DNA of 64,000 nucleotides from assembly GCA_963666875.2 (NCBI GenBank), contig CAXXPU010000005.1, forward strand, positions 21,463-85,462. Reading direction: 5' to 3'. The translations under genes and the position numbers were made by a program. Below, piece after piece: positions 1 to 16,000 of the stretch (position 1 is its first letter; every line of letters begins with the position of its first letter). Source of the DNA: Candidatus Cloacimonadales bacterium. Lineage in GTDB: Bacteria; Cloacimonadota; Cloacimonadia; Cloacimonadales; JAIOQZ01. Under the pieces are notes generated by a model. That model saw only the letters and a list, made by a program, of their open reading frames with translations. It did no database searches and was not told where the DNA came from.

Positions 1-3000
1 GAACGAGATCGGTGATGTCGAAGTGGATATGCTGTATCCGGTCTGGCGCAATGAGGGGAAACTCGATTACACCATCCGTGAAAGGATGCACGAGGGCTTA
101 CGGGTTTTCGAGCTGTTGAAGCCGATCGTTCAGGAGCCGTTGAAGATATACGACGAACGCGTGGTTCCTGCTGTCCAGAACCTGTTGAAGAACAACGGTT
201 ATCATGCGATGCACGTTCATGGACTGGGACAGATCACGCTGGCGCCGGTGTTTGTGGCGAAGGAGCTGGGTATCCCGATCTATGCGACACTGCACGACTA
301 CTGGCTGCTGTGCGATCACTGGCACATGATCCGCGAGGATCAGCGTCAGTGCATGGGACCGGAATCTGCGGCGAAGTGCGCCCGATGTTATATCGAGGAT
401 TATCTGACGGATGTCACGCCCGGGATTGAAAAGGATGTCATACAATATCAGCAGTTTCGTCGTGAGATGATGAAGAAGTTATTCGCGTCGTACGATCGGG
501 TTTTTGCACCGAGCAGGTATCTTGCCGAACGCTTTGCCGAATTCGGTTTCTCAGGGATTGAAGTAGCGCCGCTCGGATTCGAGTATGGCGAGATCGAGAC
601 GGGCAGGCCAAACGACGGGTTGTTCCACTTCGGATACACGGGACAATTGATTCCGCGAAAGGGTGTCAATTTCTTGATCGACGCCTTCATGAAGCTGCCG
701 CACAAACATGCTCGACTGGACATATACGGCCCGTTGGAGAAGGATTACGCGAAGGAGCTTCAAGCCGTCGCATCCAACGATACACGGGTGCGGTTCCACG
801 GACGCTATAATCCTGAGCATCTGGACGCAATCATGCGTACCTTCGATATGGCGATGGTTCCGTCACTGATGGAAAACTATCCGCTGGTGGTGCAGGAAGC
901 GTTTCTGCGCAAGACTCCGGTGATCGCCACATCCGTGGGCGGGATTCCCGAGGTTGTCGTGGATGACAGGAATGGCTACATGGTGGCCGCGGAGTCATCG
1001 GATTCGATACTTGCAGCGATGCGCAGAGCGATCGAAGATCCGGCTTGCGTGGAGAGGTTTACATCGAACATCGAGCCGGTTCGGAGGCTGAGCGAGGACG
1101 CAGCACATTACACATCGGTTTATGGCGGTAAAAAAATCGACAAGCCGGCGCTGCACGATAAACTGCGCATTCAGTTTTATATCGCGAAGAACGTGCATCT
1201 GCCGATGTTCCTCGAACTCTACGAATACGTCAGCAGGCAGCAGAACGTCGAGGAAATCATCTTCTGCGTTCCCGACTTCATGATGATGACATCCTCGGAC
1301 GGCAACCGGGAAGTGATGGAAAAGCTGCTCTCGCTGCCCGTCACCTTCTGCATCGATCCACGCGCGAACAGGGTGGACATCACGTTTATCGCTGACGCAA
1401 TCGCCGGGAAAGTCAAGGGCGCCGGCAAGATCGTGAATATCGGTCACGGAACCATTTCCAAAGGCTATTATTTCACGGACGGCGTATGGACGGACAGGCA
1501 GAACTGGGTCGATCTGCTCTGTGTTCCGGGAGAATACGCCAGGAATGAACTTCAGAACGCTCTATCGACTCGCCTCGTGGCAACGGGCATGCCAAAACTC
1601 GATCCGGTGTTTTCCGGCCGGATTGACATTCATGCCCTGCGTGGGCAGCTCGGAATTGTCCCCGGCAGGAAGATCGTGCTGTATGCTCCGACGTTCAACA
1701 TCGATCTGAGCAGTCTGTATCCGTTTGCAGAGCGTTTCCAAGAGCTTGCCAGCGGTAATTGGGAAATCGTGATCAAGCTTCACGGCTCCACACCCGGTCA
1801 GTACGTGAACCACTATCGTCAGTTGGCGCAACGTTTTCCGAACATCCATTTTAACACGGACGACAACCTCGCACCGCTGCTGGCACTCGCGGATATCATG
1901 ATCTCCGATGTCTCCTCTGCCTGGATGGAGTTTATGGCGCTGGATAAACCGGTTATTCTCTACAATCATCCCAACCGGTTTCACTATCACGGTTTCGACG
2001 AGAAGAACATCGAATGGGCGTGGCGCGACCTCGGTACACAAGTTGACAGCTTCGATGAACTCAAGCGCGTCCTCCCTGTGATCCTCGATCGCGGCGACGA
2101 TAAATCATCAATTAGAATGCAACACGCCTCCATGCTGTTTGCGGATCGGAAGGGGAACGCCTGCGACAATGTCTGGCGCGCTGCGTTGGATACTCTGCAA
2201 TCGAATGAAGACCGTCAGCCACCGACGATATCGTTAATCATCCGCGCCAGCGAAGATCGCTTGCCGTTTCTGTGTGATCAGGTTTTCGAGGTACTGTTCC
2301 AATCGGTGATGCCGTACGAACTGCTCGTCATCATGGAGCAGCGGAGCGTAGAGGTCTCCGGCTGGATCGAATCGCTGAAGATCGGCGGTAAGTTCCTGCG
2401 GATCGTCGAGTTGACGGATGAAGACCGGATTTCACATCATGCTCGGGGTGAGATCCTGATGTGGCTGGACAGCGATGTCGCCATTTTCAAGAATTTCGAT
2501 TATATGCTCTACCAGACGTTCAAGAACAATCCGGACGTCTCGGCGCTTACCGTCTGTACGAATGATCCGGCTCGGGGCGGTACCATTCCGTCTGAGATCG
2601 ACCAGAAGGATCGCGACTTCCTGTCCCGGTTTGCGTACGAATTTGTCTATCGATATCAGGGACGCGGAATCTCTCATTGCCGTTGCGAGAATCCTGCGCT
2701 CGTGGCAGTCTGGAAAAGCAGACTGCCGAATGACATCGACCAACCGATGAACTACGTCCTCGAACTGGCACGAAGTGGCCGGTTATCAGTCGCGAATTCC
2801 GTTTTCGTGCAAACCTTCAGCCGGCAGGAAGACCGATTGGTCAGACAGTTCTGGTCGCAGCGGGAGCAGTTACCGGATTCCGATAGACATGGAATCGCGC
2901 AGCAACTCCTTTCGATCGCGAGGTTGTCCGGCGTTGCGCTGGATGCGCTGGAAACGGCGGTCAGGCTTGGGATCAAGCAGGATATCGGCAAGCTCATCTC

Positions 3001-4447
3001 GATCATTCTCCGTATTCGATCGAACGATCCGGCAGTTTATGATCGTCTCGAACAGATTTTCTCTGCGAATCCTGTCATGATCGATTATTTGAGCGGACAC
3101 AGGAAAATACTGAATCGGTTGCTGAACACTGTCGATGAAGTTCCATCGACGAAGCGTAGCGCGATGTTCTACTTCTTCAAGAATGTCCACGTGCCGATTC
3201 TCATGCAGATCTACGATACGTTCGTGAAGATAGCGCCGGACTGGGAGGTCGCGTTTTCGTTCATGCCGTGGGCGCCGCAGATTCGCGCCGGATTCACGCC
3301 CGAGCAGATCGAGTCGCTTCATCTGCCGGATGTGACGATTACCCGGACACCGCAGGATTTTTCGCCCGATGTCACTTTCATAGCAGACTCCGCCTATCCC
3401 TGGGTGCAGAACTGCGGCAAGCTTGTCCACGTGGGGCATGGCGTACTCTCCAAAGGCCAGTATTACACCGATACCGAGATTGCCCGTCGCGATGACGCCG
3501 CTGCGATCGTTTGCGTTCCCGGCTCGATCCATAAAAAGAATCTCGATGGTGTTCTGAGAGCCAGAGTGGAAGTGACCGGCATGGCAAAGCTCGATCCGTT
3601 ATTCTCCGGCAAGATCGACCGTGAGCAGGCAGCTTCGACGCTCGGGATTCCCCCAAACGGCAGATACATCCTTTTTGCACCAACTTTCAACGACGAACTC
3701 TCCGCGATCCCATTCGTGCTGGATCGGATCGATCGGGTCATACCTGAGGGCTATACGCTTCTGATCAAGCTGCACGGAAGCACGAATCAGAAATATGTGA
3801 AGCTGTACCGGGATCTGTCCCAGCGCAATCCGCAAGTGCGGTTGATCGACGACCTGACCTGCGGAATGGTGATGGCGGACGTGATGATCTCGGACGTATC
3901 CTCCGCAATGATGGAGTTCGCCGCGCTGGAAAAGCCGGTGGTGTTGTTCGACAATCCCAACTGGCGCTACTACAAAAACTTCAACCCGAACGATATCGAC
4001 TTCCGCTGGCGTGATATCGGCATTCGAGCTAAAAGCGTCTCGGAACTGCGCCCGGCGGTGCTGAGATCGCTCGATAATCCTCGGGAATTTGCCGAAAAAC
4101 GTCGTTACTACACCGATCAGATTTTTACGAACAAGTACGATGGCAAGGCATCCGAAAGGATTGTAATGGCTGCGCTGTCGTTGTTCGATGAGAAGTCGGT
4201 CGAGACGTTACCGACAGTCGAGAAGGAGGAACGTGGTGTTGTGTTCACGTTCATCGGCGATTTCACGGAAGAAAGTGGTGTCGATGTGCTGCTGGAGGCA
4301 TTCTCTAAGCTTCCGGAAGATGGCTGGACACTGAAACTTTTCGGCGATCCGGATGCGTTTCGAGCAGAGACCGATGCTGACTCCGAATACGAAAATGCTC
4401 CCGTTTCAAGTCCATGGCCGATGCGTTGCACGGAAGCGCCCTGGTGA
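1..4447 (+). CDS. Multidomain glycopolymer synthase, 5'-partial: GT4 glycosyltransferase, TagF-like glycerol/ribitol-phosphotransferase, GT2, second TagF-like domain, then the first half of a GT4 C-domain
   Basis: The frame is open from the left edge, so the N-terminus is missing. Motifs read from the translation: GT4 (HVHGLG, EVVVDDRNGYMV); TagF-like block 1 (GHGTISKGYY, YAPTFN, KLHG, ISDVSSAWMEFMALDKPVILYN); GT2 (ISLIIRAS, LMWLDSDV); TagF-like block 2 (GHGVLSKGQYY, FAPTFN, KLHG, ISDVSSAMMEFAALEKPVVLFD); GT4 C-domain start (VVFTFIGDFTEESGVDVLLEAF). Confidence 0.85.
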   Translation, partial: NEIGDVEVDMLYPVWRNEGKLDYTIRERMHEGLRVFELLKPIVQEPLKIYDERVVPAVQNLLKNNGYHAMHVHGLGQITLAPVFVAKELGIPIYATLHDYWLLCDHWHMIREDQRQCMGPESAAKCARCYIEDYLTDVTPGIEKDVIQYQQFRREMMKKLFASYDRVFAPSRYLAERFAEFGFSGIEVAPLGFEYGEIETGRPNDGLFHFGYTGQLIPRKGVNFLIDAFMKLPHKHARLDIYGPLEKDYAKELQAVASNDTRVRFHGRYNPEHLDAIMRTFDMAMVPSLMENYPLVVQEAFLRKTPVIATSVGGIPEVVVDDRNGYMVAAESSDSILAAMRRAIEDPACVERFTSNIEPVRRLSEDAAHYTSVYGGKKIDKPALHDKLRIQFYIAKNVHLPMFLELYEYVSRQQNVEEIIFCVPDFMMMTSSDGNREVMEKLLSLPVTFCIDPRANRVDITFIADAIAGKVKGAGKIVNIGHGTISKGYYFTDGVWTDRQNWVDLLCVPGEYARNELQNALSTRLVATGMPKLDPVFSGRIDIHALRGQLGIVPGRKIVLYAPTFNIDLSSLYPFAERFQELASGNWEIVIKLHGSTPGQYVNHYRQLAQRFPNIHFNTDDNLAPLLALADIMISDVSSAWMEFMALDKPVILYNHPNRFHYHGFDEKNIEWAWRDLGTQVDSFDELKRVLPVILDRGDDKSSIRMQHASMLFADRKGNACDNVWRAALDTLQSNEDRQPPTISLIIRASEDRLPFLCDQVFEVLFQSVMPYELLVIMEQRSVEVSGWIESLKIGGKFLRIVELTDEDRISHHARGEILMWLDSDVAIFKNFDYMLYQTFKNNPDVSALTVCTNDPARGGTIPSEIDQKDRDFLSRFAYEFVYRYQGRGISHCRCENPALVAVWKSRLPNDIDQPMNYVLELARSGRLSVANSVFVQTFSRQEDRLVRQFWSQREQLPDSDRHGIAQQLLSIARLSGVALDALETAVRLGIKQDIGKLISIILRIRSNDPAVYDRLEQIFSANPVMIDYLSGHRKILNRLLNTVDEVPSTKRSAMFYFFKNVHVPILMQIYDTFVKIAPDWEVAFSFMPWAPQIRAGFTPEQIESLHLPDVTITRTPQDFSPDVTFIADSAYPWVQNCGKLVHVGHGVLSKGQYYTDTEIARRDDAAAIVCVPGSIHKKNLDGVLRARVEVTGMAKLDPLFSGKIDREQAASTLGIPPNGRYILFAPTFNDELSAIPFVLDRIDRVIPEGYTLLIKLHGSTNQKYVKLYRDLSQRNPQVRLIDDLTCGMVMADVMISDVSSAMMEFAALEKPVVLFDNPNWRYYKNFNPNDIDFRWRDIGIRAKSVSELRPAVLRSLDNPREFAEKRRYYTDQIFTNKYDGKASERIVMAALSLFDEKSVETLPTVEKEERGVVFTFIGDFTEESGVDVLLEAFSKLPEDGWTLKLFGDPDAFRAETDADSEYENAPVSSPWPMRCTEAPW

Positions 4448-4719
4448 TGCTTCCGAGTCGAGATGTGCTCAAGAGCGCTCTGGAGGCAGGTATTCCAGTC
4501 ATCGTGTCCGAGAGCGACGGCATTCGGCAGATTGTCCGCGACCGCCTGGAAGGATTCGTCATTCCAAAGGGGGATGCAAGCGCGCTGCATCGGATCGTGA
4601 AGATCCTGCTGTCGAAACCGGATATGATCGAGACGATGCGGGAGAGCATTCTGAAGAATCACCGCGTCGAGCCTGAAAACGACCCGATGTCCGATCGCCG
4701 GAGGAGACGCATCGGATAG
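4414..4719 (+). CDS. Remainder of the terminal GT4 C-domain, displaced into the -1 frame (frameshifted tail of the preceding gene)
   Basis: The translation ADALHGSALVMLPSRDVLKSALEAGIPVIVSESDGIRQIVRDRLEGFVIPKGDASAL is the canonical second half of a GT4 C-domain. It directly continues the half-domain that ends the upstream ORF. This frame only opens after the TGA at 4378-4380. Confidence 0.65.
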   Translation: MADALHGSALVMLPSRDVLKSALEAGIPVIVSESDGIRQIVRDRLEGFVIPKGDASALHRIVKILLSKPDMIETMRESILKNHRVEPENDPMSDRRRRRIG

Positions 4720-4788
4720 GCCGGTACGCAGCCACCTGTGGGTTTTGAGGAACGAAAAACCTGAAGCTGCATCTCATTCTCTATCTCT

Positions 4789-4914
4789 TGTAGCGCTCGA
4801 CCTCCAGGCGAGCCTCCTCTGAGTACGGAAGTCGAAATCAACATTCAGAAGAACCGCAAGCGGTACATTCGGAAGTTGATTTCCCTGTAGCGCGTGACCT
4901 CCGGGCGAGCCTCC
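4789..4914 (+). repeat. Family B composite repeat: 29-nt direct boxes (4789-4817 and 4886-4914) flanking a double-box hairpin core (4834-4883)
   Basis: The box TGTAGCGC..GACCTCC.GGCGAGCCTCC occurs twice. The core is GAAATCAAC-ATTCAGAAGA-(ACCGC AA GCGGT)-ACATTCGGAAG-TTGATTTC. Related copies lie at 27628-27687 and 34341-34391. Confidence 0.8.
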
Positions 4915-5056
4915 CTTTTGATCGGGATGACCGAATTGCAAGTACCATGATTAACAAAATAGAGAGTACCCATCCTCAATTCCATGCTTGTATCCATGCC
5001 GCAACATGACAATATTGCACAAATAGCTTGACATAAAATGACAAAAGTGTCCAGTC

Positions 5057-5551
5057 GTGTCCATGGAGGCCGAGATGAAAGACGAAATGATGAGCATCGA
5101 ACAGACGGCAGCGATGCTGAGCGTACACACGCGAACCATCCGTCGCTACCTGAAAAGCGGGACGCTGAAGGGCGTCAAGGTGGGTGGTAAATGGCATATC
5201 CGGGAGAGCGAAATCGAGAAAATGCTTGGACGCGACGACGTCTCGCAGGAGCTGGAGACGACCTGGAACTCACAGGCGGTCGATTTCATACAGGGCGGGA
5301 TGTCGCCGATTGGGAGCCGTATGCGGGTATGTACGATCGTGGATTGTGATTTTCACGATGATGAGGAGGCGGGAGAAGTCTCTGCGGCGCTACTGAGACT
5401 GATCAATCAGCGTGACGGCTCCGGTGTGGAAGCACGATTTCAATACAACTATCGCAAAGATGAGAAGAAAGGCAGGTTCATCCTGTGGGGTGATCCAGAA
5501 TTTATCGGACAATGTATGCAACTATTAGCAAGAAAAGGAGATGGGTCGTGA
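5057..5551 (+). CDS. Excisionase/MerR-type helix-turn-helix DNA-binding protein with an unassigned C-terminal domain
   Basis: MSIEQTAAMLSVHTRTIRRYLKSGTLKGVKVGGKWHIRESEIEKML is a typical excisionase-family HTH. The true start is probably the ATG at 5075, 5 nt after a GGAGG. Confidence 0.7.
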   Translation: MSMEAEMKDEMMSIEQTAAMLSVHTRTIRRYLKSGTLKGVKVGGKWHIRESEIEKMLGRDDVSQELETTWNSQAVDFIQGGMSPIGSRMRVCTIVDCDFHDDEEAGEVSAALLRLINQRDGSGVEARFQYNYRKDEKKGRFILWGDPEFIGQCMQLLARKGDGS

Positions 5552-6375
5552 AGTTTGTCGTAGTACTGGCTTTGGTGATATCGATTATGGCATGTGCGAA
5601 ACAGGTGGCGAACGAAGAAGAGCAATTGCTGAAGCTATCGGAGATCACGCGGATCTGGCAGACAGCGAAGGAGATGCACCCGGCATGGCACAAGCTGTAC
5701 CCGGTCTGCCTGATCGACGATGGTAATTACAAGCTTTATCATCCGGACGGTGCAGACAACTGGACGAAAGTCGATGAAGGGAAATTCGGCATGCGCTTAC
5801 CGGACGGCGTGAAGGCGGCATTTCCGCTACCGTTCGGAGATCATGATATGGCGTGCATCCTTGACGTGAATTGCTTCCACACGAAGGAAGACATGGCGAT
5901 TGTCTTCCATGAATTCGTTCATTGCTACCAGTCGGCGACTTGCGAGCATGATATCAAGGCGACCTTGCGCGTAGCACAGGAGAACAAGCACACGAACGGC
6001 ATGTGGGAACTCGAATACGCCTTCCCATACGATAACGAGCTGGCCGGAAAGACCTATATACAAATGATCGAGGCGGCGGAGAACAAGGATCGCGACGAGG
6101 TGATCAGGCTTCGCGAGATGATCCGGAAGAACGTCACGGAGCAGGATTGGGAATACCTTTGCTGGCAGGAGTTCAAGGAGGGCACCGCGCGATTCTTACA
6201 GAACGAACTGAGCAAACGTCTGGACGCAAAGCCAGCGCTCTCGAATCGCTCGTTACCGATCAATCGAGTGTCGTTTTATGAGGGCGGCGAGATGATTATC
6301 CGTCTGATCATGCTCGACGACGAGGGTATCGAAAAGGATTTTCCGAGGCTCTGGACGCGGATAAGCAATTTATAA
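5512..6375 (+). CDS. Putative lipoprotein with an HExxH zinc-metallopeptidase motif
   Basis: Signal peptide plus lipobox (KFVVVLALVISIMAC) and HEFVH inside VFHEFVHCYQ. The likely start is the GTG at 5548, 8 nt after AAAGGAG. The family is not recognised. Confidence 0.6.
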   Translation: MYATISKKRRWVVKFVVVLALVISIMACAKQVANEEEQLLKLSEITRIWQTAKEMHPAWHKLYPVCLIDDGNYKLYHPDGADNWTKVDEGKFGMRLPDGVKAAFPLPFGDHDMACILDVNCFHTKEDMAIVFHEFVHCYQSATCEHDIKATLRVAQENKHTNGMWELEYAFPYDNELAGKTYIQMIEAAENKDRDEVIRLREMIRKNVTEQDWEYLCWQEFKEGTARFLQNELSKRLDAKPALSNRSLPINRVSFYEGGEMIIRLIMLDDEGIEKDFPRLWTRISNL

Positions 6376-6599: not shown

Positions 6600-8093
6600 T
6601 TATTTGATCAGGATCATCTTCTTTACGCTGTCGTATCCATCGGTCTTCAAGCGGTAGAAATAGACGCCGGACGAGGTCGATTTGCCTGTACTGTCCGCGC
6701 CGTCCCATTCGATGCGGTGTTCACCGGGTTCGGTCATGCCGGAAACCAGCGTTTTCACCTTCTGTCCGCGAATATTATACACGCTCAGATTGACGTTTGA
6801 TTTCTCCGCGAGGTTGAAGGCGATCGTCGTGGAGGGATTGAACGGGTTTGGGTAGTTGTTCAGACTTTCTTCGAATGACGGGATAGCGTTTTCGTCCACA
6901 GCGACGATGCGTTGAACCGTGTATTCGTAGATCGATGAAGCGCCCGATATAAAGAATACGTGTTCGCCCAGGGTTTGGGTTTGCCAGTATGAGGATGATG
7001 CCGTGTGATCGAAATGGAAGCTCTGATAATCCGAAGTCTCTCGATCGATTACGTTGAGCGTATGCAGCGAGTCCTGCACGACGAGGACGACAACATCCTG
7101 CTGCATAGGCGCAATTGTTTTACCGTCATAGAAGCTTTCGTCCCAGGTGATTTCGTTATCTACGATCCCCTTTATACAGATCAGGTTGTAGTAGTAATTC
7201 TCGTACACGAATTGTGTCTCATTGAGAACGACAGGATTGTTGAACTGCGAGAAATCAGCCAGCGGCTCGAATGGCAAAATATCTTCAACGACCAGCTCAT
7301 TATCTACGATCCGGGCATAGAATCCGTATTCGTCGAAACTGAAGCGGAAATGAAGGATGTAGCCATCGGCGATCGGTATTGCTGAAGCGCTGTCCAGCCA
7401 GTCAAGCTCAAGCACGTTCTCCGACAGGTAGTTGAACTCGCTGTCGAATAGGTGGATGCACCCTCCGTTCACCATCAGTGCCAGATAGTCGTTGTTCATG
7501 CTGAACAGCTCGGTTCCCTGGTCGATGTACTCTGCGTCGTAGGTATAAATCAAATCCGTGTCTCCGGTCTCGAGATCGAGCCGCATGACGTCGTATCCGT
7601 CGATGTAGAGGAAGGTCCCCACATCCCACAGAACGGTGCCGCAGTGGGCGTACCATACTTCGTCTTCGTACGGGAGGTCGAAGCTGTTTTCATAAATACC
7701 GTCCTCGAAGATGAAGAGGGTCGAAACGGTATCGCCGTAACAGTGAAGCACGGTTTTGGTATCGCAGTGCTCAAAGAAGAATTCGTTGTGATCGCCTCCG
7801 AATCCGGCGGTGTTTTCGGCAGCATAATTCGTTACGAGGTTGCTAAAGATCGCGGTCGAATCCATGGTGAACGACTGCACGTAGAGGGAGTCGCCGTCGA
7901 TGTTGAATTTCCAGAATCGCAGATAGCTTTCATTTAATTTTTCGACAGAATGATAGGTCAATGGAATCGAATGTGTGTTATGAAAATCGACTTCGTAGCT
8001 GACTTGAGCATGCAGAAACAGGCTCGACAGGATGAATAGAAAGATCGTGACCACTACAGATTTCCGTAACATATTGCCCCCTTTGATATACAA
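6600..8093 (-). CDS. Secreted hypothetical protein with a type-A T9SS C-terminal sorting domain
   Basis: Signal peptide (MLRKSVVVTIFLFILSSLFLHAQ; likely start near 8072). C-terminus NYPNPFNPSTTIAFNL...VYNIRGQKVKTLV...GVYFYRLKTDGYDSVKKMILIK. Confidence 0.8.
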   Translation of the reverse strand: MYIKGGNMLRKSVVVTIFLFILSSLFLHAQVSYEVDFHNTHSIPLTYHSVEKLNESYLRFWKFNIDGDSLYVQSFTMDSTAIFSNLVTNYAAENTAGFGGDHNEFFFEHCDTKTVLHCYGDTVSTLFIFEDGIYENSFDLPYEDEVWYAHCGTVLWDVGTFLYIDGYDVMRLDLETGDTDLIYTYDAEYIDQGTELFSMNNDYLALMVNGGCIHLFDSEFNYLSENVLELDWLDSASAIPIADGYILHFRFSFDEYGFYARIVDNELVVEDILPFEPLADFSQFNNPVVLNETQFVYENYYYNLICIKGIVDNEITWDESFYDGKTIAPMQQDVVVLVVQDSLHTLNVIDRETSDYQSFHFDHTASSSYWQTQTLGEHVFFISGASSIYEYTVQRIVAVDENAIPSFEESLNNYPNPFNPSTTIAFNLAEKSNVNLSVYNIRGQKVKTLVSGMTEPGEHRIEWDGADSTGKSTSSGVYFYRLKTDGYDSVKKMILIK

Positions 8094-8185: not shown

Positions 8186-11100
8186 TTACTTTATCAGGAT
8201 CATCTTCTTTACGCTGTCGTATCCATCGGTCTTCAAGCGGTAGAAATAAACGCCGGACGAAGTCGATTTGCCTGTACTGTCCGCGCCGTCCCATTCGACT
8301 CGGTGTTCGCCGGGTTCGGTCACACCGGAAACCAGCGTTTTCACCTTCTGACCTTTGATGTTATAGACGCTCAGGTTCACGTTCGACATCTGCGAGAGGC
8401 TGAAGGCGATCGTCGTGGAGGGATTGAACGGATTGGGGTAGTTGCCCATCAGTTCGGTGGTGAATTCCGGCGCAGCGGGATTCTCAGTTCCGGTGGGGCT
8501 GTCTGGGTAGAAGCCGGTACGGCGAAGGTTGCCGCGATATGTGTACCACGGCATTTTGGTTCCCGTCTGCATCTTGCAGTCGATGATCACCACGCCGCTG
8601 GCGTTTCCGCACATGAATTCGAGATCGTTGTCGCCATCGAGGTCGATTACCGTTCCCGGCGTATTGCCACCCAGTTGAACCGGTACCGGAGAGAATCCGA
8701 TCGCGGTGCCGTCCGGGTTGTAGGCGTACAGGTTGCTCAGGCTGGAGAAGGAGATAATCTCGATGTCGTTGTCGTTGTCGAAGTCGGCTGCGAGCGGTGG
8801 ATTGAGGAAGGTGACCCCAGTATTGACGGGGAAGCCTTCGAGGCATGCGCCGTTCAGCTTTACGATATAGATGAAGCCATTATGCGTATTGAACGCGATT
8901 TCCAGGCCCTGGTCGTTGTCGAAATCGGCGAAGATCACCGAATTGGCGACGCGGCCTTCGATCTCGAGTTCAAGCATCGTCTCGCCTTCCGCGGAGATGC
9001 GGTACAGCTTGTTGTTCTGGGTTCCAAGCACGATGCTGTGATCCGGCAGGATCGTCGGTGCGCCGATGACGCCAGAGCCGAGTTCGATCGGGAAATTGCC
9101 GTAGTTGCTTCCGTCGTTGAGCAGAACGAACAGGGTTCCGTCGTTGGAGCCGACAATGATCTCGTCCGTACCGTCCAGATTCATGTCGGCAGCGGCGATT
9201 TCAGCCAGCGTCGGTTCCAGCTCGACCGGGAAGCCGATTTTTTCGTGACCGAGGCGGTTGATGGCATGCAGATAGCCGTCGATACCCAGCGAGATCACTT
9301 CCCACTGGTCGTCGCCGTCGATATCGGCGACAAGCGGGGTCATGAGCTGTTCACTCACTTCGTCGCTTTCGAAGATCTGAGTGCCGTCGAGGTTGTAAGC
9401 ACCGATTTCGCCAAGCCTGCTTGCATAGATGATATCGGGACTGCCGTCGTCATTCATGTCTTCGAAGGCGGTGCTACGCCAGAGACGTTCGTTGTTGAGA
9501 ACTGGATAATCCTCGACGATCGACGCGTTGATATTCAGCGCGATGATCTCGGCTTCGTCCGAAACCGCGATAATCTCCATTACGCCGTCGTCGTTGAGAT
9601 CGTAGGGGATGGGCGCCGACTTGAAATCGTAGCCGCTCGCCCAGGGCCAGTTACTCTGGTACATGCTGACCGAGAAAACGCGGTCGTAGCTGTTGACGAA
9701 GGTGTACTCGCCGGAAGTGGCCGTAACTTCGATGGTATAATAGATATCCGCGAAACCGCAATCGTCCGGTACGGATATCTGGAAAGGATACAGAGCGTTG
9801 GAACCGGTGCTTCCGGCGGGGATGGGGCCGTAGTCCGACGTGCCGTTATCGATGACGATGGTTTCGTTCTCGAAGCTGATCGCCGCGGTGACGCTCTGTG
9901 CGTCCGCCCAGCCTTCCTCATTGACCAGATCGACATAGATATAGACCGTCTCACCCGGATTGATGAAGCCGTCGCCGTCACCCTCGACTTCCGCGATCGT
10001 GGTTTCGCTGACTGTCACGTATGGGAACAGCCCGGTAGCGTCTTTGACTTGAACGCTCGGATCGCCCAGCACGATCATCTCGTAGTAGATCCACAGCATC
10101 ACGCCACCGTCCGCGGCTTCGTTGACCAGATCGACCTTGGAATAGTTGAGCGCTTCGCCGAGCGAACGAATATCCTGCTCGAAGATGCCCTCGAAAAAGC
10201 TGATATCGTAGTATTCAGATGCGCCCCAGACGCTGCCGGGTGCATACCATCCGTAACGGGTGTTGCCGACGTAGGCGAACAGCCCGTGCGCCGAATTGGT
10301 GAGGTTTTCAGCGATACACTCGGCTTCCTGGCTGGTTCTTTCGTCGAACGCCGCCGGATAGCAGCCCTGCGAGTATGCAAAACCGTATTCGGTGTTGACC
10401 AGCGAAGAAACGTTGCTGTTGGTCATGCCCATGTTGTATGTCTGGTTGGAGTGCCCCATGTGGTTGATGATGCCGACGCCTTCGTTGATCGCCTGCAAAA
10501 CCGCCTGGGTGCCGAACGTTCCGTCGCGTTCGTAGAGTGTTTTCACGAAGAATTCGTCCGGCAGAATCGGTGAGACCATATCCTTGTAATCCCCTCCCCA
10601 TGTCATGGGGTTGGTGTTGAGGTTCTCGCCCAGCATCGCGGCGATATCGTTGCTGTATGTGGTCTGATCCGTATAGTAGTATGTCTTGTTGAACAGGTTG
10701 TTGAATTCGGTTTCGGACTCCGCGGACATACGTGCCACAGCCACTTCGGGCAGCAGATCCGGATTGTCCTGATTTATCTCGCCCCAGATACCGTCGCCGT
10801 CGGCGTTCCAGTCTCCGTCGAGATTACCGAAGTACATATCGGTGGGGATCCTGTTATCAACGGTTCCACCTACCTGGCCATAGCAGCCGCGCTCGGGACA
10901 GATTTCGTCGTCGCCACCAAGCAGGACGTATTCGAGCGGTGTCTCGGTTTCGGCGTAGCAGGTGTAGGCGTCGATGATGAAGTTACGCACCTTGTCCGCG
11001 TTATCCACGCCTTCGTATTCGCTGTAGATATCGCTGACCAGGAAGAGTCCGGTCGAAACGCCGTGGCTCTCTTTCCACTGCATGAATTCGCTGAAGAACG

Positions 11101-11776
11101 GTTCGCGCTGCGCATCGGTGATGATCACCATGCTGTAAGGACCTTCCGGGTCACGCGGGTTACGTCCGTTGTTCGTCTTCGTATAGCTGTTGAGCAGTTG
11201 CGGATTCTTCACGGTTCGTTCAATCGATGCGAGAACCTTGTCCGATTGAACCAGGAAGCGGTTCTGGGTCTGCTCGATCTCTCTGTTTTCGGCAGTTACA
11301 ACCTCGATCTCCGCATCCGTGAACCAGGTTAACTGTTTCTGAACAGGGTTGTACTGGTAGGGATATACGTTCAGCAGCAGGATGTCGTGACCGTTCATTC
11401 TCTGAACGCCCAGGTTCCTGTATGTGTAGCCCGGGAAGTTCTCATCGGAACCATAGACCTCTTCGTTGCGGAGTGCGGTCTGCGGATTCGCGATGGAGGT
11501 GGGCTGCTGCATCGGTGCAAAATCGATGTCCGCGTTATTAATGGTCTGTTCGCCATTCAGATATACTTCGACATTCTCGACAGTGTGTCCGAATGGTAAC
11601 AGTATGCGAACGGTTTCGTACGGCAATTCGGGATTGCCGGCTTCCATCATGCGCGCGGTAACGTTCTCGAAGTGGTTGCCGCGTATCGATGGACGACTGA
11701 ATTGAAGGTTGAGTTCGACGTTGGCAAGTATAAGCATTGGCGTAAGTAATAACGCCAGGACGATGAATCGTCTCAT
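8186..11776 (-). CDS. Peptidase C25 (gingipain-like) cysteine protease with FG-GAP/VCBS-type repeats and a T9SS sorting domain
   Basis: Signal peptide. C25-like blocks (VIITDAQREPFFSEFMQWKESHG, YVLLGGDDEICP, IINHMGHSN with the catalytic His, FAYSQGCYPAAF with the catalytic Cys). At least 7 calcium-type repeats (DLNDDGVMEII, DMNDDGSPDII, DIDGDDQWEVI, DMNLDGTDEII, DFDNDQGLEI, DFDNDNDIEI, DLDGDNDLEF). C-terminus NYPNPFNP...KMILIK. Confidence 0.85.
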   Translation of the reverse strand: MRRFIVLALLLTPMLILANVELNLQFSRPSIRGNHFENVTARMMEAGNPELPYETVRILLPFGHTVENVEVYLNGEQTINNADIDFAPMQQPTSIANPQTALRNEEVYGSDENFPGYTYRNLGVQRMNGHDILLLNVYPYQYNPVQKQLTWFTDAEIEVVTAENREIEQTQNRFLVQSDKVLASIERTVKNPQLLNSYTKTNNGRNPRDPEGPYSMVIITDAQREPFFSEFMQWKESHGVSTGLFLVSDIYSEYEGVDNADKVRNFIIDAYTCYAETETPLEYVLLGGDDEICPERGCYGQVGGTVDNRIPTDMYFGNLDGDWNADGDGIWGEINQDNPDLLPEVAVARMSAESETEFNNLFNKTYYYTDQTTYSNDIAAMLGENLNTNPMTWGGDYKDMVSPILPDEFFVKTLYERDGTFGTQAVLQAINEGVGIINHMGHSNQTYNMGMTNSNVSSLVNTEYGFAYSQGCYPAAFDERTSQEAECIAENLTNSAHGLFAYVGNTRYGWYAPGSVWGASEYYDISFFEGIFEQDIRSLGEALNYSKVDLVNEAADGGVMLWIYYEMIVLGDPSVQVKDATGLFPYVTVSETTIAEVEGDGDGFINPGETVYIYVDLVNEEGWADAQSVTAAISFENETIVIDNGTSDYGPIPAGSTGSNALYPFQISVPDDCGFADIYYTIEVTATSGEYTFVNSYDRVFSVSMYQSNWPWASGYDFKSAPIPYDLNDDGVMEIIAVSDEAEIIALNINASIVEDYPVLNNERLWRSTAFEDMNDDGSPDIIYASRLGEIGAYNLDGTQIFESDEVSEQLMTPLVADIDGDDQWEVISLGIDGYLHAINRLGHEKIGFPVELEPTLAEIAAADMNLDGTDEIIVGSNDGTLFVLLNDGSNYGNFPIELGSGVIGAPTILPDHSIVLGTQNNKLYRISAEGETMLELEIEGRVANSVIFADFDNDQGLEIAFNTHNGFIYIVKLNGACLEGFPVNTGVTFLNPPLAADFDNDNDIEIISFSSLSNLYAYNPDGTAIGFSPVPVQLGGNTPGTVIDLDGDNDLEFMCGNASGVVIIDCKMQTGTKMPWYTYRGNLRRTGFYPDSPTGTENPAAPEFTTELMGNYPNPFNPSTTIAFSLSQMSNVNLSVYNIKGQKVKTLVSGVTEPGEHRVEWDGADSTGKSTSSGVYFYRLKTDGYDSVKKMILIK

Positions 11777-12102
11777 GAATCCTCCTGTACTCTCTCTCTT
11801 TATATTTATGCAATGAATCCTATCTTCTCAAAACAATATAAGGCAATTCCTGTTCCTGAAAACCGCAACCCTGTCAAATATTCGAGAAATGACAAGTGAA
11901 AAATGTTCTGTTAAAAAGAAAAAACCTACGCAACGCAGGATCGAACGCTGCATATGAGTTGTAAGGGGCAGGTCCCTGTGCCGGCCCTTTCACTTCCCAC
12001 TAATTTTTCAGGCTCTGTTGCATATTAAGTGGGTGGATATCTTAACGATGATTATGAAGTCCTGGAAGGACGATGGAATTTAGCCCATGGCGTAAGCCAT
12101 GG

Positions 12103-12637
12103 TGTCCCGTCCTGAAATAGGTTGACCATTGGGTCGAAGGAGGCTCAGGTATGGGAGAAAATGTGAAGCGACGAGCGAAGCGGCGCGGGTTCGCCTATCT
12201 TTCGCTGACCTCGGATCAGTACTCGGATGCGATCCTGGGGTATTCGCTACAGCCCGACTTGCGCACGCATGGTCCCGCGCTTTCGCTGCAACGGGCAATC
12301 AAGATGCTCCGCAAGGCCGGAGCCGTAGATTTCGAAGGATGTATCCACCACTCCGATCACGGGTGTCAATTCACCAGTGCCTGTTTCCAGAACGCGCTGC
12401 GACGTTAAGGCTATCGTACCAGCATGACCGGCCCAGGCAAGTGCTACGACAACGCCAAAGCCGAGCGGATCAACGGGATTCTGAAGCATGAATTGGGGCT
12501 GAGACGAAGGTTCATGGACTTCGACGACGCGCTGAAGTACGTCGAGGAGGCGGTTCGGATCTACAACGAGGAACGGCTCATCATCACGCAGAATTATCGA
12601 ACACGAAAAAGCTGGTCAACTATTTCAGGACGGGACA
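12103..12637 (+). mobile_element. Internally deleted IS3-family element, about 535 bp, retaining both terminal inverted repeats
   Basis: Left end TGTCCCGTCCTGAAATAGGTTGACCA (12103-12128). The reverse complement of the right end TGGTCAACTATTTCAGGACGGGACA (12613-12637) matches it at 25 of 26 positions with one indel. The interior carries only the C-terminal part of an rve transposase. Confidence 0.8.
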
Positions 12638-12669
12638 GCGGCACAGGCGTTGGGGGCTATCGCCTTTAA
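12151..12669 (+). pseudogene. IS3-family transposase OrfB remnant, N-terminally truncated with an in-frame TAA
   Basis: HHSDHGCQFTS and GKCYDNAKAERINGILKHE are IS3-type DDE/rve signatures. A TAA at 12406-12408 interrupts ...ALRR*GYRTSMTGPGKCYDNA. The first catalytic Asp region is absent. Confidence 0.85.
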
Positions 12670-13092
12670 ACAAGCAAGGTTTTCAAATAATCACGGGTGG
12701 ATCGATCTTATTCATCGAGAAGAAAACCTTCAGAAGAAGACCTTCAGGTGTGCAAACGTTTTAAACGACACGAAAAAAAGTTCGTTGCCAAGAACACGGC
12801 CTCCGCAGAGGCCCATTGAGAGCATATCATAGGATTTATACAAGACAGTGCAAGTAGTCGGGCAGAATTTGAATGCATCCCGGTACGAGTCTGCTAAAGC
12901 AATCTGTGCTCAGAATCTTCTTGTAGTCTTATCAGCTATCTGGTTGGAGATGATATTGATCGCAATTTTAGCAATCAAGATGGATGCGTTCACTTCAAGG
13001 AAGTCTTCAGCAACCCATCGGCTTATGCCATGTTCCATGACAAGATGATTGGCCCAGCGAAGATCGATATCACATACATTTCCTTGTTCGAG

Positions 13093-16000
13093 TTAATGGG
13101 TCATTAATTTTTTGTCTCTTCCAGGATGATACCGGTTGTTGACACTTTGTTGATCATTTCGGAGATTATTTGCTGCCACAACGAAATAGAAGCAACTGGA
13201 TTCTCTCAGCGGCTCTGTGTCGATGTAGCTTTCCGTTGCAGTTGTACCGATCTGCACAAATTCTCTGTCAGGAAACTCCGAGCGATAAATGATGTACGAT
13301 GTAGCATCCGGGACGATAGTCCAACTCAGCAGAATTGAACTATCTCCAACAGAGATTGTTACATTCGCTGGTGCTGTCAATTCACCGGGATCAACACCAA
13401 CTGTCCACTCGTATGCACCCATATCAATCGTTGTATTCTGAATGCGATCCTGTCCTCGGATGTCACAGGATTCGTTGTTGTAGTTGTTGTCTCCGGTATC
13501 CACGCATGAAGAAGAGCCATCGATTCTCAAGTCACCGGTTTCAGCGCTAACGAATAGAGGATCAACAGAAATGTTGTTAATCGTTGCATCAAGAATGTCT
13601 GAACCACCTGACAGTACCACATCATTCGTGCCGTTTGCGTAGCATGAATACTTCAAAGTAGTTGTGCCGCCGCCCATCAGGAACATCTGATTACCGGTCG
13701 TTGCAAGATTTCCCCAGACAATACAGTTTTGCAGAACCGGAGAGCAATTGTTGTAATTCAACATGCCGCCACCGTAATTTGTGGTTACATTCATTGCAAT
13801 TGTAGTGTTTGTCAGTACCGGAGAAGAGGAAGTCGAGTTCTCGATTCCAGCGCTGTTATTCGTGGTCTTGTTACCATAGATCAAGCAATTTGTGATAATG
13901 GGAGATGCATTGTAATTACAGACACCGCCCCCGTAATCACCTACATTCGCTGTAATAGAAACGTTTGTGATGGATGGCGAAGCCCCGGAATTGAAAACTC
14001 CAGAACCCCTGTCAAAAGGTTCTGTTCCATTTCCGTGCCCACCCTTCACCGTAAAACCATTCAAAACACTCGCGGTGGTCAAAGGATCCGGATTGTAGAT
14101 TACATGATAGCAGTTTTCCGAATTGTTGGAGAAAGTCAGCGTCTCTCCACTTCCGCTTACAATGTCGTCCCCGAATCGATCACCGCTTAAAATGGTTTCG
14201 TTTTCGTCTCCCATTCCGAAATTCGTTCTTTCATCCATGGAAGTTTCCGTACCGGCAAATCCGCCGTAGATTTCGACTCCTTCCATCATCCTGAAATGAT
14301 AATAGCGGGGGGTATTCGTCAGATTGTAAGAAGAACTTGGAATATATGTTCCCTTTGCCACCCAGATTTGATCTCCGGGTATGGCAATATCAAGCGCTGA
14401 TTGCAGGGAGGTAAAGGCATCCGCCCAGCTTGCTCCATTGTTCGCTCCCACGGCATTGATATCGGCATACAGAATTCCAGCGATACTGTATGGATCGACG
14501 TCATGTGTCCACTCGTAAGCGCCCATATCGATTGTGGTGTTTTGGATTCGGGCCTGACCACGCACATCGGTTGATGCTGTGTTATAGCTGTTCAGACCGC
14601 TATTGACTGCAGGTGAACAGCCCAGCAATCGAAAATCCTGCGTGAAGGCATCGATAAAAAGAGGGTCAATCGTGATGTTGTTATTGGTCGCGTCGAGGAT
14701 TCCATTCAGCGTTTCAACGTCATTGACGAGATTCTTGTAACAGGAATAGTTGATGGTTGTTGAACCGGTGCTGACCAACGATAGTTCATTCCCGGAACTC
14801 GTTGCCGTGTTATTCCAGATAACGCTATTTCTGATGGTCAACGTGGAAGCCACATTGTCCGAAGCAAACCTGATACCGCCTCCGGATAGTCCGGCATGAT
14901 TCTCTGAAATGGTTACGTTATTCAAAACGGCATCATACTGGACTGAACTGGAGTAGAATATTATGGCTCCACCATTATTGGTCGTCGTGTTAGAAGAAAA
15001 CAACGCGTTGGCGATCGTAAGCGAAGATGAGTGCGTAGATAAAGCGCCACCGTCAGTAACCGAGTTGTTACCGGTGAATATCGCGTTCCGAATTGACGCT
15101 GTTGTTTCTCTGAAATATATTGCACCTGCATTGTACGCATAATTCGATGCAAAACTCAAACCATCAAATTCTGGAGAACCGTTGTAAACATATACCCCTC
15201 CACCGCTATTTGAAGAGAGATTGTTGGAGAATGAGGCATTTTCCAGGAACGACATACTGTCATACATATATACAGCGCCGCCAATGCTTTCTGCTTTATT
15301 TGAATCGAAATTCACCTTCCTGATGACTGGCGAGGAGGAGAACAGGTAAAATGCACCTCCTCTGTTATGAGGATTGCTCCCTCTGTTTGCATTTCCACCC
15401 GTTATTGTAAATCCGTCAAGCAGGGCAGAATTTGTTAGATTCATTCCGTCTGGGTGATAGAATACATGATAGCAGTTATCATCTCCGCTGGCACCCTGAT
15501 AACCACCATTGGTTACATCAAAATCATCATTATCATTCAAATCACCGCTTAGGATTGTTTCATTTGCTTCTTCAAAACCATAATTGGTTCTCTGGTCGAC
15601 CCCAGTCTCGGTTCCGGCAAATCCACCATATATTTCAGTTCCTTCCACCATTCTGAAATGATAATAACGGGAACCACCACCCAGTCCATAGTCATATTCT
15701 GGTTTGTACGTTCCTTTTGCCACCCAGATCTGATTACCCGAAACCGCTTCATTCAAAGCTGATTGAAGCGAAGTGTAAGCGTCAACCCAGCATGAACCGT
15801 CATTGTTTCCACCGGCAAGAAGATCCACGAAGATGACCTGAAGGGGCGGATCAACACCGACTGTCCACTCGTATGCACCCATATCAATCGTTGTATTCTG
15901 AATGCGATCCTGTCCTCGGATGTCACAGGATTCGTTGTTGTAGTTGTTGTCTCCGGTATCCACGCATGAAGAAGAGCCATCGATTCTCAAGTCACCGGTT

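Follow-up and report, generated by a model that had tools for sequence, protein, structure and literature searches.

What would a bacterium make with a single polypeptide in which TagF-like domains alternate with glycosyltransferase (GT) domains? This question is raised by a gene at the left edge of a 64,000-nucleotide (nt) stretch of DNA from a Candidatus Cloacimonadales bacterium (the window; positions 21463-85462 of contig C5, CAXXPU010000005.1), whose genome assembly comprises 4.02 Mb in 20 contigs, with 52% GC and an estimated completeness of 90.8%. A preliminary description of the window had taken the gene for a single-chain assembly line of five catalytic modules that would make a teichoic-acid-like polymer. 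Our analysis points instead to a giant protein of about ten modules that would, on balance, probably act as a single-chain polymerase of a phosphate-containing heteroglycan, supplied with sugar-1-phosphate rather than cytidine diphosphate (CDP)-polyol donors.

A giant gene and its modules

In the window the gene is seen as a single open frame of 1,481 codons (2..4447, + strand) that runs off the left edge. Followed leftward, the frame remains open to C5:17567, and its likely start codon is an ATG at C5:17759 (window -3703), ~3.7 kb left of the window, which is preceded at a 5-nt spacing by a GAGGA Shine-Dalgarno sequence and overlaps, as ATGA, the stop codon of an upstream asnB-like gene of 565 amino acids (aa). 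The in-frame product is 2,716 aa; with read-through of a frame break described below, the giant protein would reach ~2,807 aa, and the window holds residues 1236 to ~2807, the C-terminal ~53% of the gene. Pfam profiles were run against the whole protein and ten pieces of it (cut-offs: 23.3 bits for the GT2 profile PF00535 and 22.1 bits for Glyphos_transf, PF04464). The resulting features, together with those taken from structural models and from alignment to orthologues, are as follows.

Residues 222-339: GT2 domain (GT2a); Pfam 43 bits, with LDDDA
Residues 526-627: GT2-like domain (GT2b); 20 bits, below cut-off, with LGNHC at the expected DxD position, conserved so in the genus
Residues 755-840: TPR (tetratricopeptide repeats), by Pfam
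Residues 929-1064: GT2 domain (GT2c); Pfam 120 bits, with LDADD
Window 1..4447 (+): main reading frame, the frame of position 2; residues 1236-2716 of the gene
Window 1..1069 (+), residues ~1223-1591: complete GT4 domain (GT-B); Glyco_transf_4 49 bits and Glycos_transf_1 98 bits
Window 1154..2221 (+), residues ~1620-1975: TagF-like domain 1 (TagF1); Glyphos_transf 67.5 bits, two-lobe GT-B-like fold
Window 2222..2776 (+): GT-A-fold domain (GT2d), with a weak GT2 match at residues 2048-2089 and DSD at ~2468-2476
Window 2777..3151 (+): all-helical bundle of six helices linking the GT-A-fold domain to TagF-like domain 2; DSSP of both models, no Pfam match
Window 3152..4216 (+), residues ~2286-2640: TagF-like domain 2 (TagF2); Glyphos_transf 72.6 bits, TarL match
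Window 4229..4402 (+): first part of a lone C-terminal Rossmann half of a GT4, in the main frame, aligned to orthologues
Window 4381..4411 (+): interval of the -1 frame change, in which the coding signal moves and orthologues are uninterrupted
Window 4402..4719 (+): rest of the GT4 C-half, in the -1 frame

Read from the N terminus, the modules are a domain of unknown type (residues 1-215, which gave no sequence match in Pfam, NCBIfam or the PDB), a GT-A domain (DDD), a GT-A-like domain without DxD, the TPR, a GT-A domain (DAD), the complete GT4, TagF1, the GT-A-fold domain with its helical bundle, TagF2 and the half-GT4. The first ~13 residues of the complete GT4 fall left of the window, and its EX7E motif, ENYPLVVQE, lies at window 872-898. 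Three glycosyltransferase domains can be assigned with confidence, two of them GT-A domains with DxD and one the GT4 with EX7E. The trailing module (residues 2643-2783; 53 bits against Glyco_trans_1_4 on read-through, and 34 bits for the 4381-4719 piece alone) is not a full GT4: only the C-terminal lobe is present (positions 3-167 of the Glyco_trans_1_4/Glycos_transf_1 profiles), directly after TagF2, and intact orthologues likewise have the C-lobe only. GT2b and the half-GT4 are probably non-catalytic relics. Because no transmembrane segment is predicted anywhere in the giant protein (maximum 19-residue Kyte-Doolittle mean 1.43), it is probably cytoplasmic, and possibly associated with the membrane surface.

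The same module order is found, in one unbroken frame, in two full-length orthologues, P0003 (2,794 aa, 73% identity) and a second protein of 2,784 aa (68% identity), each at 99% coverage. Their records are independently assembled Candidatus Cloacimonadales metagenome-assembled genomes (MAGs; OY771587.1, a 3.89-Mb chromosome, and CAXXSY010000004.1). Judged by these orthologues, the giant gene is a real, single, conserved gene; an artefactual chimera or fusion was rejected, the same open reading frame (ORF) being present in three independent assemblies. Past the break in the source genome, the main frame ends at a TGA (4445-4447), and the -1 frame, which is open only after a TGA at 4378-4380, stays open to 4719. 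The 105 codons at 4402..4719 contain no stop and are 70% identical to P0003, as good as the rest of the protein. Since both orthologues, which are of the same genus, share the architecture without interruption, and since the codons past the break are stop-free and conserved to this degree, the break appears to be either very recent or an assembly error.

Two other accounts of the break were considered. A programmed -1 frameshift was rejected, as 4381-4411 contains no X XXY YYZ slippery site and the orthologues are single-frame. The 9-mer CCGTTTCAA was not convincing as a systematic frameshift or error motif: among its 41 copies in the genome, one besides the studied site lies at a frame break (background rate 0.8%), and the test could not flag the studied site, where the downstream frame is short. 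A scan of window 4300-5100 for terminators and promoters found nothing.

The TagF-like domains and the domain between them

Scanned as separate pieces, both TagF-like domains score well above the Glyphos_transf cut-off, and both contain the two histidine motifs of the TagF family. GHG lies at window 1442-1450 in TagF1 and at 3434-3442 in TagF2 (histidine codons 1445-1447 and 3437-3439), and KLHG at 1775-1786 and 3767-3778 (histidine codons 1781-1783 and 3773-3775). Profile alignment places the KLH histidine opposite the catalytic H584 of Staphylococcus epidermidis TagF. The GHG histidine, a candidate counterpart of the first catalytic histidine of TagF (H444), is invariant and stands in both domains at the expected junction of N-lobe and C-lobe; the HMMER alignments to TagF and TarL stop short of it. 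Among 12-16 homologues, GHG and KLHG are invariant in both domains, as are dozens of residues in each of TagF1 and TagF2. The sequence matches of TagF1 are TarL (8VA1) and Cps3D (8QOY), and that of TagF2 is TarL; the NCBIfam equivalog models for TarL, TarF and TarB gave ~45-53 bits against cut-offs of 500-1000.

The predicted fold agrees with the profiles. Residues 1610-2640 were modelled with AlphaFold2 (AF2) from an alignment of 16 sequences (mean predicted local distance difference test score, pLDDT, 86.8); the model contains two complete Rossmann domains of two lobes each, with an alpha/beta domain and the helical bundle between them. When this model was compared with the PDB by Foldseek, the top ranks were Cps3D (8QOY, E 3e-15), TagF (3L7I-M, E 3.5e-12; template-modelling score on target 0.64-0.67), Bcs3 (8A0C) and TarL (8VA1). 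TagF1 and TagF2 are 36% identical to each other over 358 aa, and each is nearer to its own counterpart in other phyla than to its neighbour in the chain, which argues for two distinct conserved functions.

The domain between them is of a different kind. Against PF00535 it gave 16-19 bits (18.8 in the whole-protein map), below the cut-off. A separate AF2 model of the middle piece (pLDDT 91.5) shows a GT-A fold followed by the six-helix bundle, with Foldseek probabilities of 1.0 for PcManGT (6YV7), TarS (5TZI), TarP (6H4F) and GalNAc-Ts. At the DxD position, homologues have DSD, SDD, TDD, QDH, DDD, DDG, NDS, DEA, RDD, NED, DES, KEN, RED, NEG or EEN, and a (F/Y)KN(F/Y)DY motif is kept just downstream. 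GT2d is also the least conserved module, with 38% identity between orthologues of the genus versus 65-88% for the catalytic domains. We therefore regard it as a predicted GT-A fold whose catalysis is doubtful or whose specificity is fast-changing, because its DxD is not conserved and its identity is low.

These results leave much of the preliminary description standing. One chain does fuse TagF-like and glycosyltransferase domains, among them two separate Glyphos_transf stretches and a complete GT4, and the motifs it quoted (GHG, KLHG, DSD and others) are all present at the mapped positions. The frame is open at the left edge, as it had said, but the gene has roughly double the size that it seemed to have there, with three GT-A-type domains and the TPR upstream. 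What had been called a GT2 block with DSD has a GT-A fold by predicted structure, although neither the profile score nor the conservation of DxD bears out the family assignment; and the trailing GT4 C-half is indeed a C-terminal Rossmann lobe, but it is interrupted by the -1 change and so is not all in one frame with the rest. The count of five catalytic modules has to be given up, since there are about ten modules, two of which (GT2b and the half-GT4) look non-catalytic, and the GT-A domain between the TagF-like domains is poorly conserved.

Distribution and neighbourhood of the cassette

A whole-length protein search returned 58 proteins, onto each of which the ten modules were mapped. A cassette of the order GT4–TagF1–GT-A-fold–(helices)–TagF2 closes ~30 of these proteins, which are 1.7-3.9 kaa (thousand aa) long and share 37-50% identity, and it follows N-termini that vary widely (extra GT2 domains, methyltransferases, a radical-SAM/B12 module, TPR). 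Only in the genus is the cassette accompanied by the trailing half-GT4, the N-domain of unknown type and the asnB neighbour. In one protein of the genus (P0005, locus L034), TagF1, the GT-A-fold domain and the helical bundle have been cleanly deleted, and the half-GT4, the asnB coupling and all else are kept. In an Acidobacteriota MAG (L027) the cassette is split into a TagF1–GT-A gene and a TagF2 gene. Relatives larger than the giant protein also end in the cassette: an open frame of 4,961 aa (G022:C3) and proteins of 4,346 aa (L022) and 4,358 aa (L024), with up to nine or more GT-type modules. One or two in-frame stops (TGA, TAG or TAA) occur in the cassette matches of G006, G010, G015, G016, G019 and G022, and could reflect split genes, pseudogenes or assembly errors.

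Among species-representative genomes, the hosts of the cassette are Cloacimonadota, Thermodesulfobacteriota, a 'Proteobacteria' MAG, an Acidobacteriota MAG and an Ignavibacteriales MAG, with no cultured strain among the carriers. The TagF1-type domain is present in 14 of 232 Cloacimonadota genomes (11 of 66 genera), all within one order, and in seven of the eight genomes of the family to which the window organism belongs. Among 1.84 billion representatives clustered at 50% identity, only eight proteins match the cassette profile from end to end, in addition to three fragments; the TagF2-type domain alone is far commoner, with 257 matches below 1e-30. TagF2-type paralogues of 500-900 aa are found in most relatives, and the source genome itself has a third, stand-alone TagF-like gene (contig C11:12394-13974, - strand; 526 aa, Glyphos_transf 73.7 bits, ~36% identical to TagF2) that adjoins a Glyco_trans_1_2 gene, a TPR gene, a divergent GHMP kinase gene and rmlC/rmlD. 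The database names of cassette proteins are generic ('CDP-glycerol glycerophosphotransferase family protein', 'glycosyltransferase'), and a literature search turned up nothing on such proteins in Cloacimonadota or on polymerases with two TagF-like domains. The cassette architecture is rare, confined to uncultured organisms and uncharacterised. The suggestion that such an architecture had not been described thus agrees with the searchable literature, and the domain order, far from being common and already characterised, recurs only in organisms that have not been cultured.

Upstream of the giant gene lie genes for type IX secretion system (T9SS) cargo, a TPR protein, two DUF1670 proteins, an HDOD protein and a hybrid histidine kinase, and then the asnB-like gene (TIGR01536, 432 bits, above cut-off). 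The ATGA overlap of this gene with the giant gene is present in all four genomes of the genus. Downstream are an excisionase-family helix-turn-helix (HTH) gene and an unknown gene of 287 aa, followed by further T9SS cargo genes that include a C25 peptidase. The asnB–giant-gene pair and the HTH–287-aa pair, the latter kept downstream in both full-length orthologous loci, are all that is conserved between these loci. The HTH–287-aa pair occupies window 5057-6375 (the HTH gene encodes 164 aa, and the 287-aa gene has no Pfam or NCBIfam match). The two DUF1670 ORFs, which are adjacent or overlapping, lie at C5:8750-10383 (-) and have HTH motifs. T9SS cargo genes are dense around the locus (window 6600-8093 and 8186-11776, both on the - strand; C5:821-5171 and 10442-13237), with C-terminal domains of the Por_Secre_tail/CHU_C/FlgD_ig types, and the C25 (gingipain-family) peptidase among them is 1,196 aa long and has FG-GAP repeats. 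With T9SS cargo genes all around, and Candidatus Cloacimonadales MAGs as the nearest relatives, the host is a diderm of the FCB (Fibrobacterota–Chlorobiota–Bacteroidota) group, as had been supposed.

The coupled asnB is one of three paralogues in the source genome. The other two lie in a glycan island (contig C17:264000-284000, locus L074) together with genes for a TPR-GT2, a TPR-sulfotransferase, a second sulfotransferase, a methyltransferase, an epimerase/dehydratase, a DegT aminotransferase and a GNAT protein, a content similar to that of the cassette neighbours in other MAGs (L026). Across 19 loci, other partners of the cassette are limited to particular clades: asnB in the genus, and a TPR protein, a sulfotransferase-TPR protein and a GT4 in another clade.

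The polymer and its rivals

How might these modules work together? In TagF-like capsule polymerases, fused TagF-like, GT and TPR domains form complete polymerases in which the TagF-like domain transfers either hexose-phosphate or glycerol-phosphate (PMC5974469), and the fused multi-enzyme chain of Bcs3 is likewise a complete polymerase (PMC10299916); the TPR in fused polymerases mediates oligomerisation (PMC5974469, PMC10299916). Because fused domains form complete polymerases in these proteins, we propose that the giant protein would be a self-contained polymerase at the cytoplasmic face of the inner membrane. Its three confident (possibly four) glycosyltransferase domains would add sugars and each of its diverged TagF-like domains one phosphodiester bond, to give a phosphate-containing heteroglycan of the poly(oligosaccharide phosphate) kind with two phosphodiester and three or four glycosidic bonds in each repeat. 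The phospho-donors would more likely be nucleotide sugars, from which sugar-1-phosphate is transferred as in CslB and Cps1B, or an activated alcohol of a kind not yet recognised, rather than CDP-glycerol or CDP-ribitol; sugar-1-phosphate is favoured over polyol-phosphate because TagF-like domains can transfer either hexose- or glycerol-phosphate and the carriers of the cassette are without TagD. The translationally coupled AsnB-family amidotransferase may amidate a carboxylate of the precursor or of the polymer (for example on a uronic acid, which is a guess), and the export route and acceptor of the product are matters for guesswork only.

Several observations weigh against this proposal. Every function named here, polymerase activity included, is a prediction from sequence. 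GT2b is without DxD, the C-terminal module amounts to half a fold and is interrupted in the source genome, and GT2d has only four invariant columns among 16 homologues, the DxD not among them. No partner gene conserved beyond close clades was found around the cassette in the 19 loci, and no transporter, flippase, priming transferase or nucleotide-sugar gene lies beside the giant gene at its own locus. The preliminary description had noted that multidomain TagF-like capsule polymerases exist in Gram-negative pathogens; of the export genes that go with these, KpsC/S (Capsule_synth) and Wza/KpsD (Poly_export) had no match in the 90.8%-complete genome, the search not extending to Wzx, Wzy, WaaL or priming transferases. 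ABC-2 permeases yielded nothing beyond generic or GldAFG-like sets at the one locus inspected, where a small ABC-2 permease is part of a GldAFG-like set; this set (contig C19:153477-157846, locus L076), of the gliding-motility type, comprises an ABC ATPase, the ABC-2 permease, a GldG-like ABC_transp_aux protein and a DUF4340 protein, and fits an organism of the FCB group. Finally, a 239-aa nucleotidyltransferase (C17:101614-102333) is 36% identical to one encoded beside the cassette in a Desulfomicrobium-like MAG (L025), and is a candidate source of an unconventional CDP-alcohol donor. The gene for this protein (NTP_transferase/NTP_transf_3) adjoins a B12-binding radical-SAM gene (DUF4080) and lies among type IV pilus genes (C17:100004-102333, locus L073).

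The nucleotidyltransferase also bears on the product that had been proposed originally, a true teichoic-acid-like poly(glycosyl-polyol phosphate), for which both TagF-like domains would use CDP-glycerol or CDP-ribitol in the manner of TagF, TarL, Cps3D/Cps7D and Bcs3. An NTP_transferase homologue in the genome, with a related one adjoining the cassette elsewhere, would suit such a product, as would the fact that the closest solved relatives in sequence and fold are TarL, TagF, Cps3D and the CroT domain of Bcs3. The fusion of TagF-like, GT-B and TPR domains, too, resembles the class that makes glycerol-phosphate polymers (PMC5974469). However, matches in the PDB are biased to enzymes that have been solved, and no TagF-like domain that transfers hexose-phosphate is among them. 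Moreover, TagD was not found in the source genome, the two CTP_transf_like genes of which are, judged by sequence, those for NadD and an HldC-type heptose adenylyltransferase, and an IspD search of that genome gave one strong match (a second being GlmU-like), hence no spare TarI. When TIGR01518 above cut-off was taken as the mark of a bona fide TagD in 41 related genomes, six had TagD and ~15 had the cassette, with no genome having both; the closed relatives G002 and G007 agree on the absence of TagD. The case for a polyol-phosphate polymer is weakened by these findings, and we now think it unlikely.

Still less likely, in our judgement, is a machine for protein or lipid glycosylation, which would place a phosphoglycan on T9SS cargo, an S-layer, pili or a lipopolysaccharide-like anchor, with the TPR recruiting the acceptor. 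The gene does lie amid many T9SS cargo genes with Por_Secre_tail domains, the capsule export genes sought in the genome were not found, and related loci and the second island have TPR-GT2, sulfotransferase, methyltransferase, pyruvyl-transferase and AsnB-family genes typical of decorated glycans. Attachment of T9SS cargo in Porphyromonas uses a linker that contains glucuronamide and depends on an amidotransferase of the AsnB type, which also speaks for this reading. Yet orthologous loci do not share the T9SS neighbours, and T9SS is a system of the FCB group, whereas the cassette is also found in Thermodesulfobacteriota and Acidobacteriota MAGs; nor does any link lead from the giant protein to a specific acceptor. 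It is more improbable again that the gene is a decaying pseudogene in the source genome, with the frame break as its loss of function. The break at 4381-4411, the in-frame stops inside the cassette of some relatives (G006, G010, G016, G019, G022) and the absence of TagF1, the GT-A domain and the helical bundle from P0005 of the same genus would all be in keeping with decay. Against this, the 2,716 codons upstream of the break are intact, those beyond it remain stop-free at the protein-wide level of identity, only a probably non-catalytic half-domain is touched, and a single-base assembly error in a MAG is at least as likely an explanation.

Compared with systems already known, the proposed heteroglycan polymerase is closest in its features to the multidomain capsule polymerases. 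Like CslB, Cps1B, Cps12B, Ccs2, Cps3D and Cps7D (Litschko et al. 2018, PMC5974469), it combines TagF-like, GT-A/GT-B and TPR domains in one polypeptide in a diderm host and has both TagF-family histidine motifs, and Cps3D (8QOY) is its top structural match. Those enzymes, however, have one TagF-like and one GT domain in ~1,000-1,250 aa and are encoded in kps loci with KpsMT, KpsC/S and KpsD/E; the giant protein has two diverged TagF-like domains, four to five GT-type domains and a half-GT4 in ~2,800 aa, its gene has asnB-like, histidine kinase, HDOD, T9SS cargo and HTH neighbours, and no CDP-glycerol pathway was found in its genome. Bcs3 of Haemophilus influenzae type b (PMC10299916; 8A0C) is similar in that its single chain joins a TagF-like domain, CroT, to other catalytic domains and to helical bundles. 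It differs in that its 1,215 aa accommodate three enzymes, namely CroT, the phosphatase CrpP and the ribosyltransferase CriT, along with an SH3b domain, and in its use of CDP-ribitol and phosphoribosyl pyrophosphate (PRPP); Pfam scans of the giant protein, whole or in pieces, detected neither a phosphatase nor a PRPP-type transferase nor SH3b. The wall teichoic acid enzymes TagF, TarL, TarF and TagB share with it Glyphos_transf membership, the GT-B-like fold and the histidine equivalent to H584; they are single-function proteins of 380-730 aa that need TagD or TarIJ and export by TagGH. The O-antigen proteins WbdA and WbbB, which belong to pathways dependent on ABC transporters, also carry several GT domains, together with helical or coiled segments, in a single cytoplasmic chain, which builds a whole polysaccharide on a lipid carrier. 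Unlike the giant protein, they have two to three GT modules and no TagF-like domain, and are encoded beside wzm/wzt. By its predicted features the giant protein would thus group with the TagF-like multidomain polymerases, apart from the kps context and the CDP-polyol supply of the latter, and would differ from them in scale and in its two TagF-like domains.

Giant multi-glycosyltransferase ORFs are not in themselves unusual in metagenomes. Multidomain TagF-like polymerases, however, have so far been known only from the capsule loci of a few pathogens, and their value lies in the one-pot synthesis of vaccine-type polymers. We raise, as a tentative idea that may well prove wrong, the possibility that uncultured anaerobes have a family of single-chain 'megasynthases' defined by the GT4–TagF–GT-A–TagF cassette. 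Such proteins would form two different sugar-phosphate (or novel alcohol-phosphate) links per repeat without CDP-polyols, and would exchange lineage-specific modules at the N terminus (GT2, methyltransferase, radical SAM, TPR) in a manner reminiscent of polyketide and nonribosomal peptide synthetases, so that domain order would encode the structure of a poly(oligosaccharide phosphate), possibly an anionic envelope glycan of Cloacimonadota. The natural module swaps would then be a means of relating domain order to polymer structure, and the deletion variant P0005 would show by comparison what TagF1, the GT-A-fold domain and the helical bundle contribute. If the giant protein is indeed a heteroglycan polymerase, it would extend the known range of the TagF-like enzyme class beyond the kps and teichoic-acid context and would point to a phosphate-rich envelope glycan in Cloacimonadota and in sulfate-reducer MAGs of anaerobic habitats.

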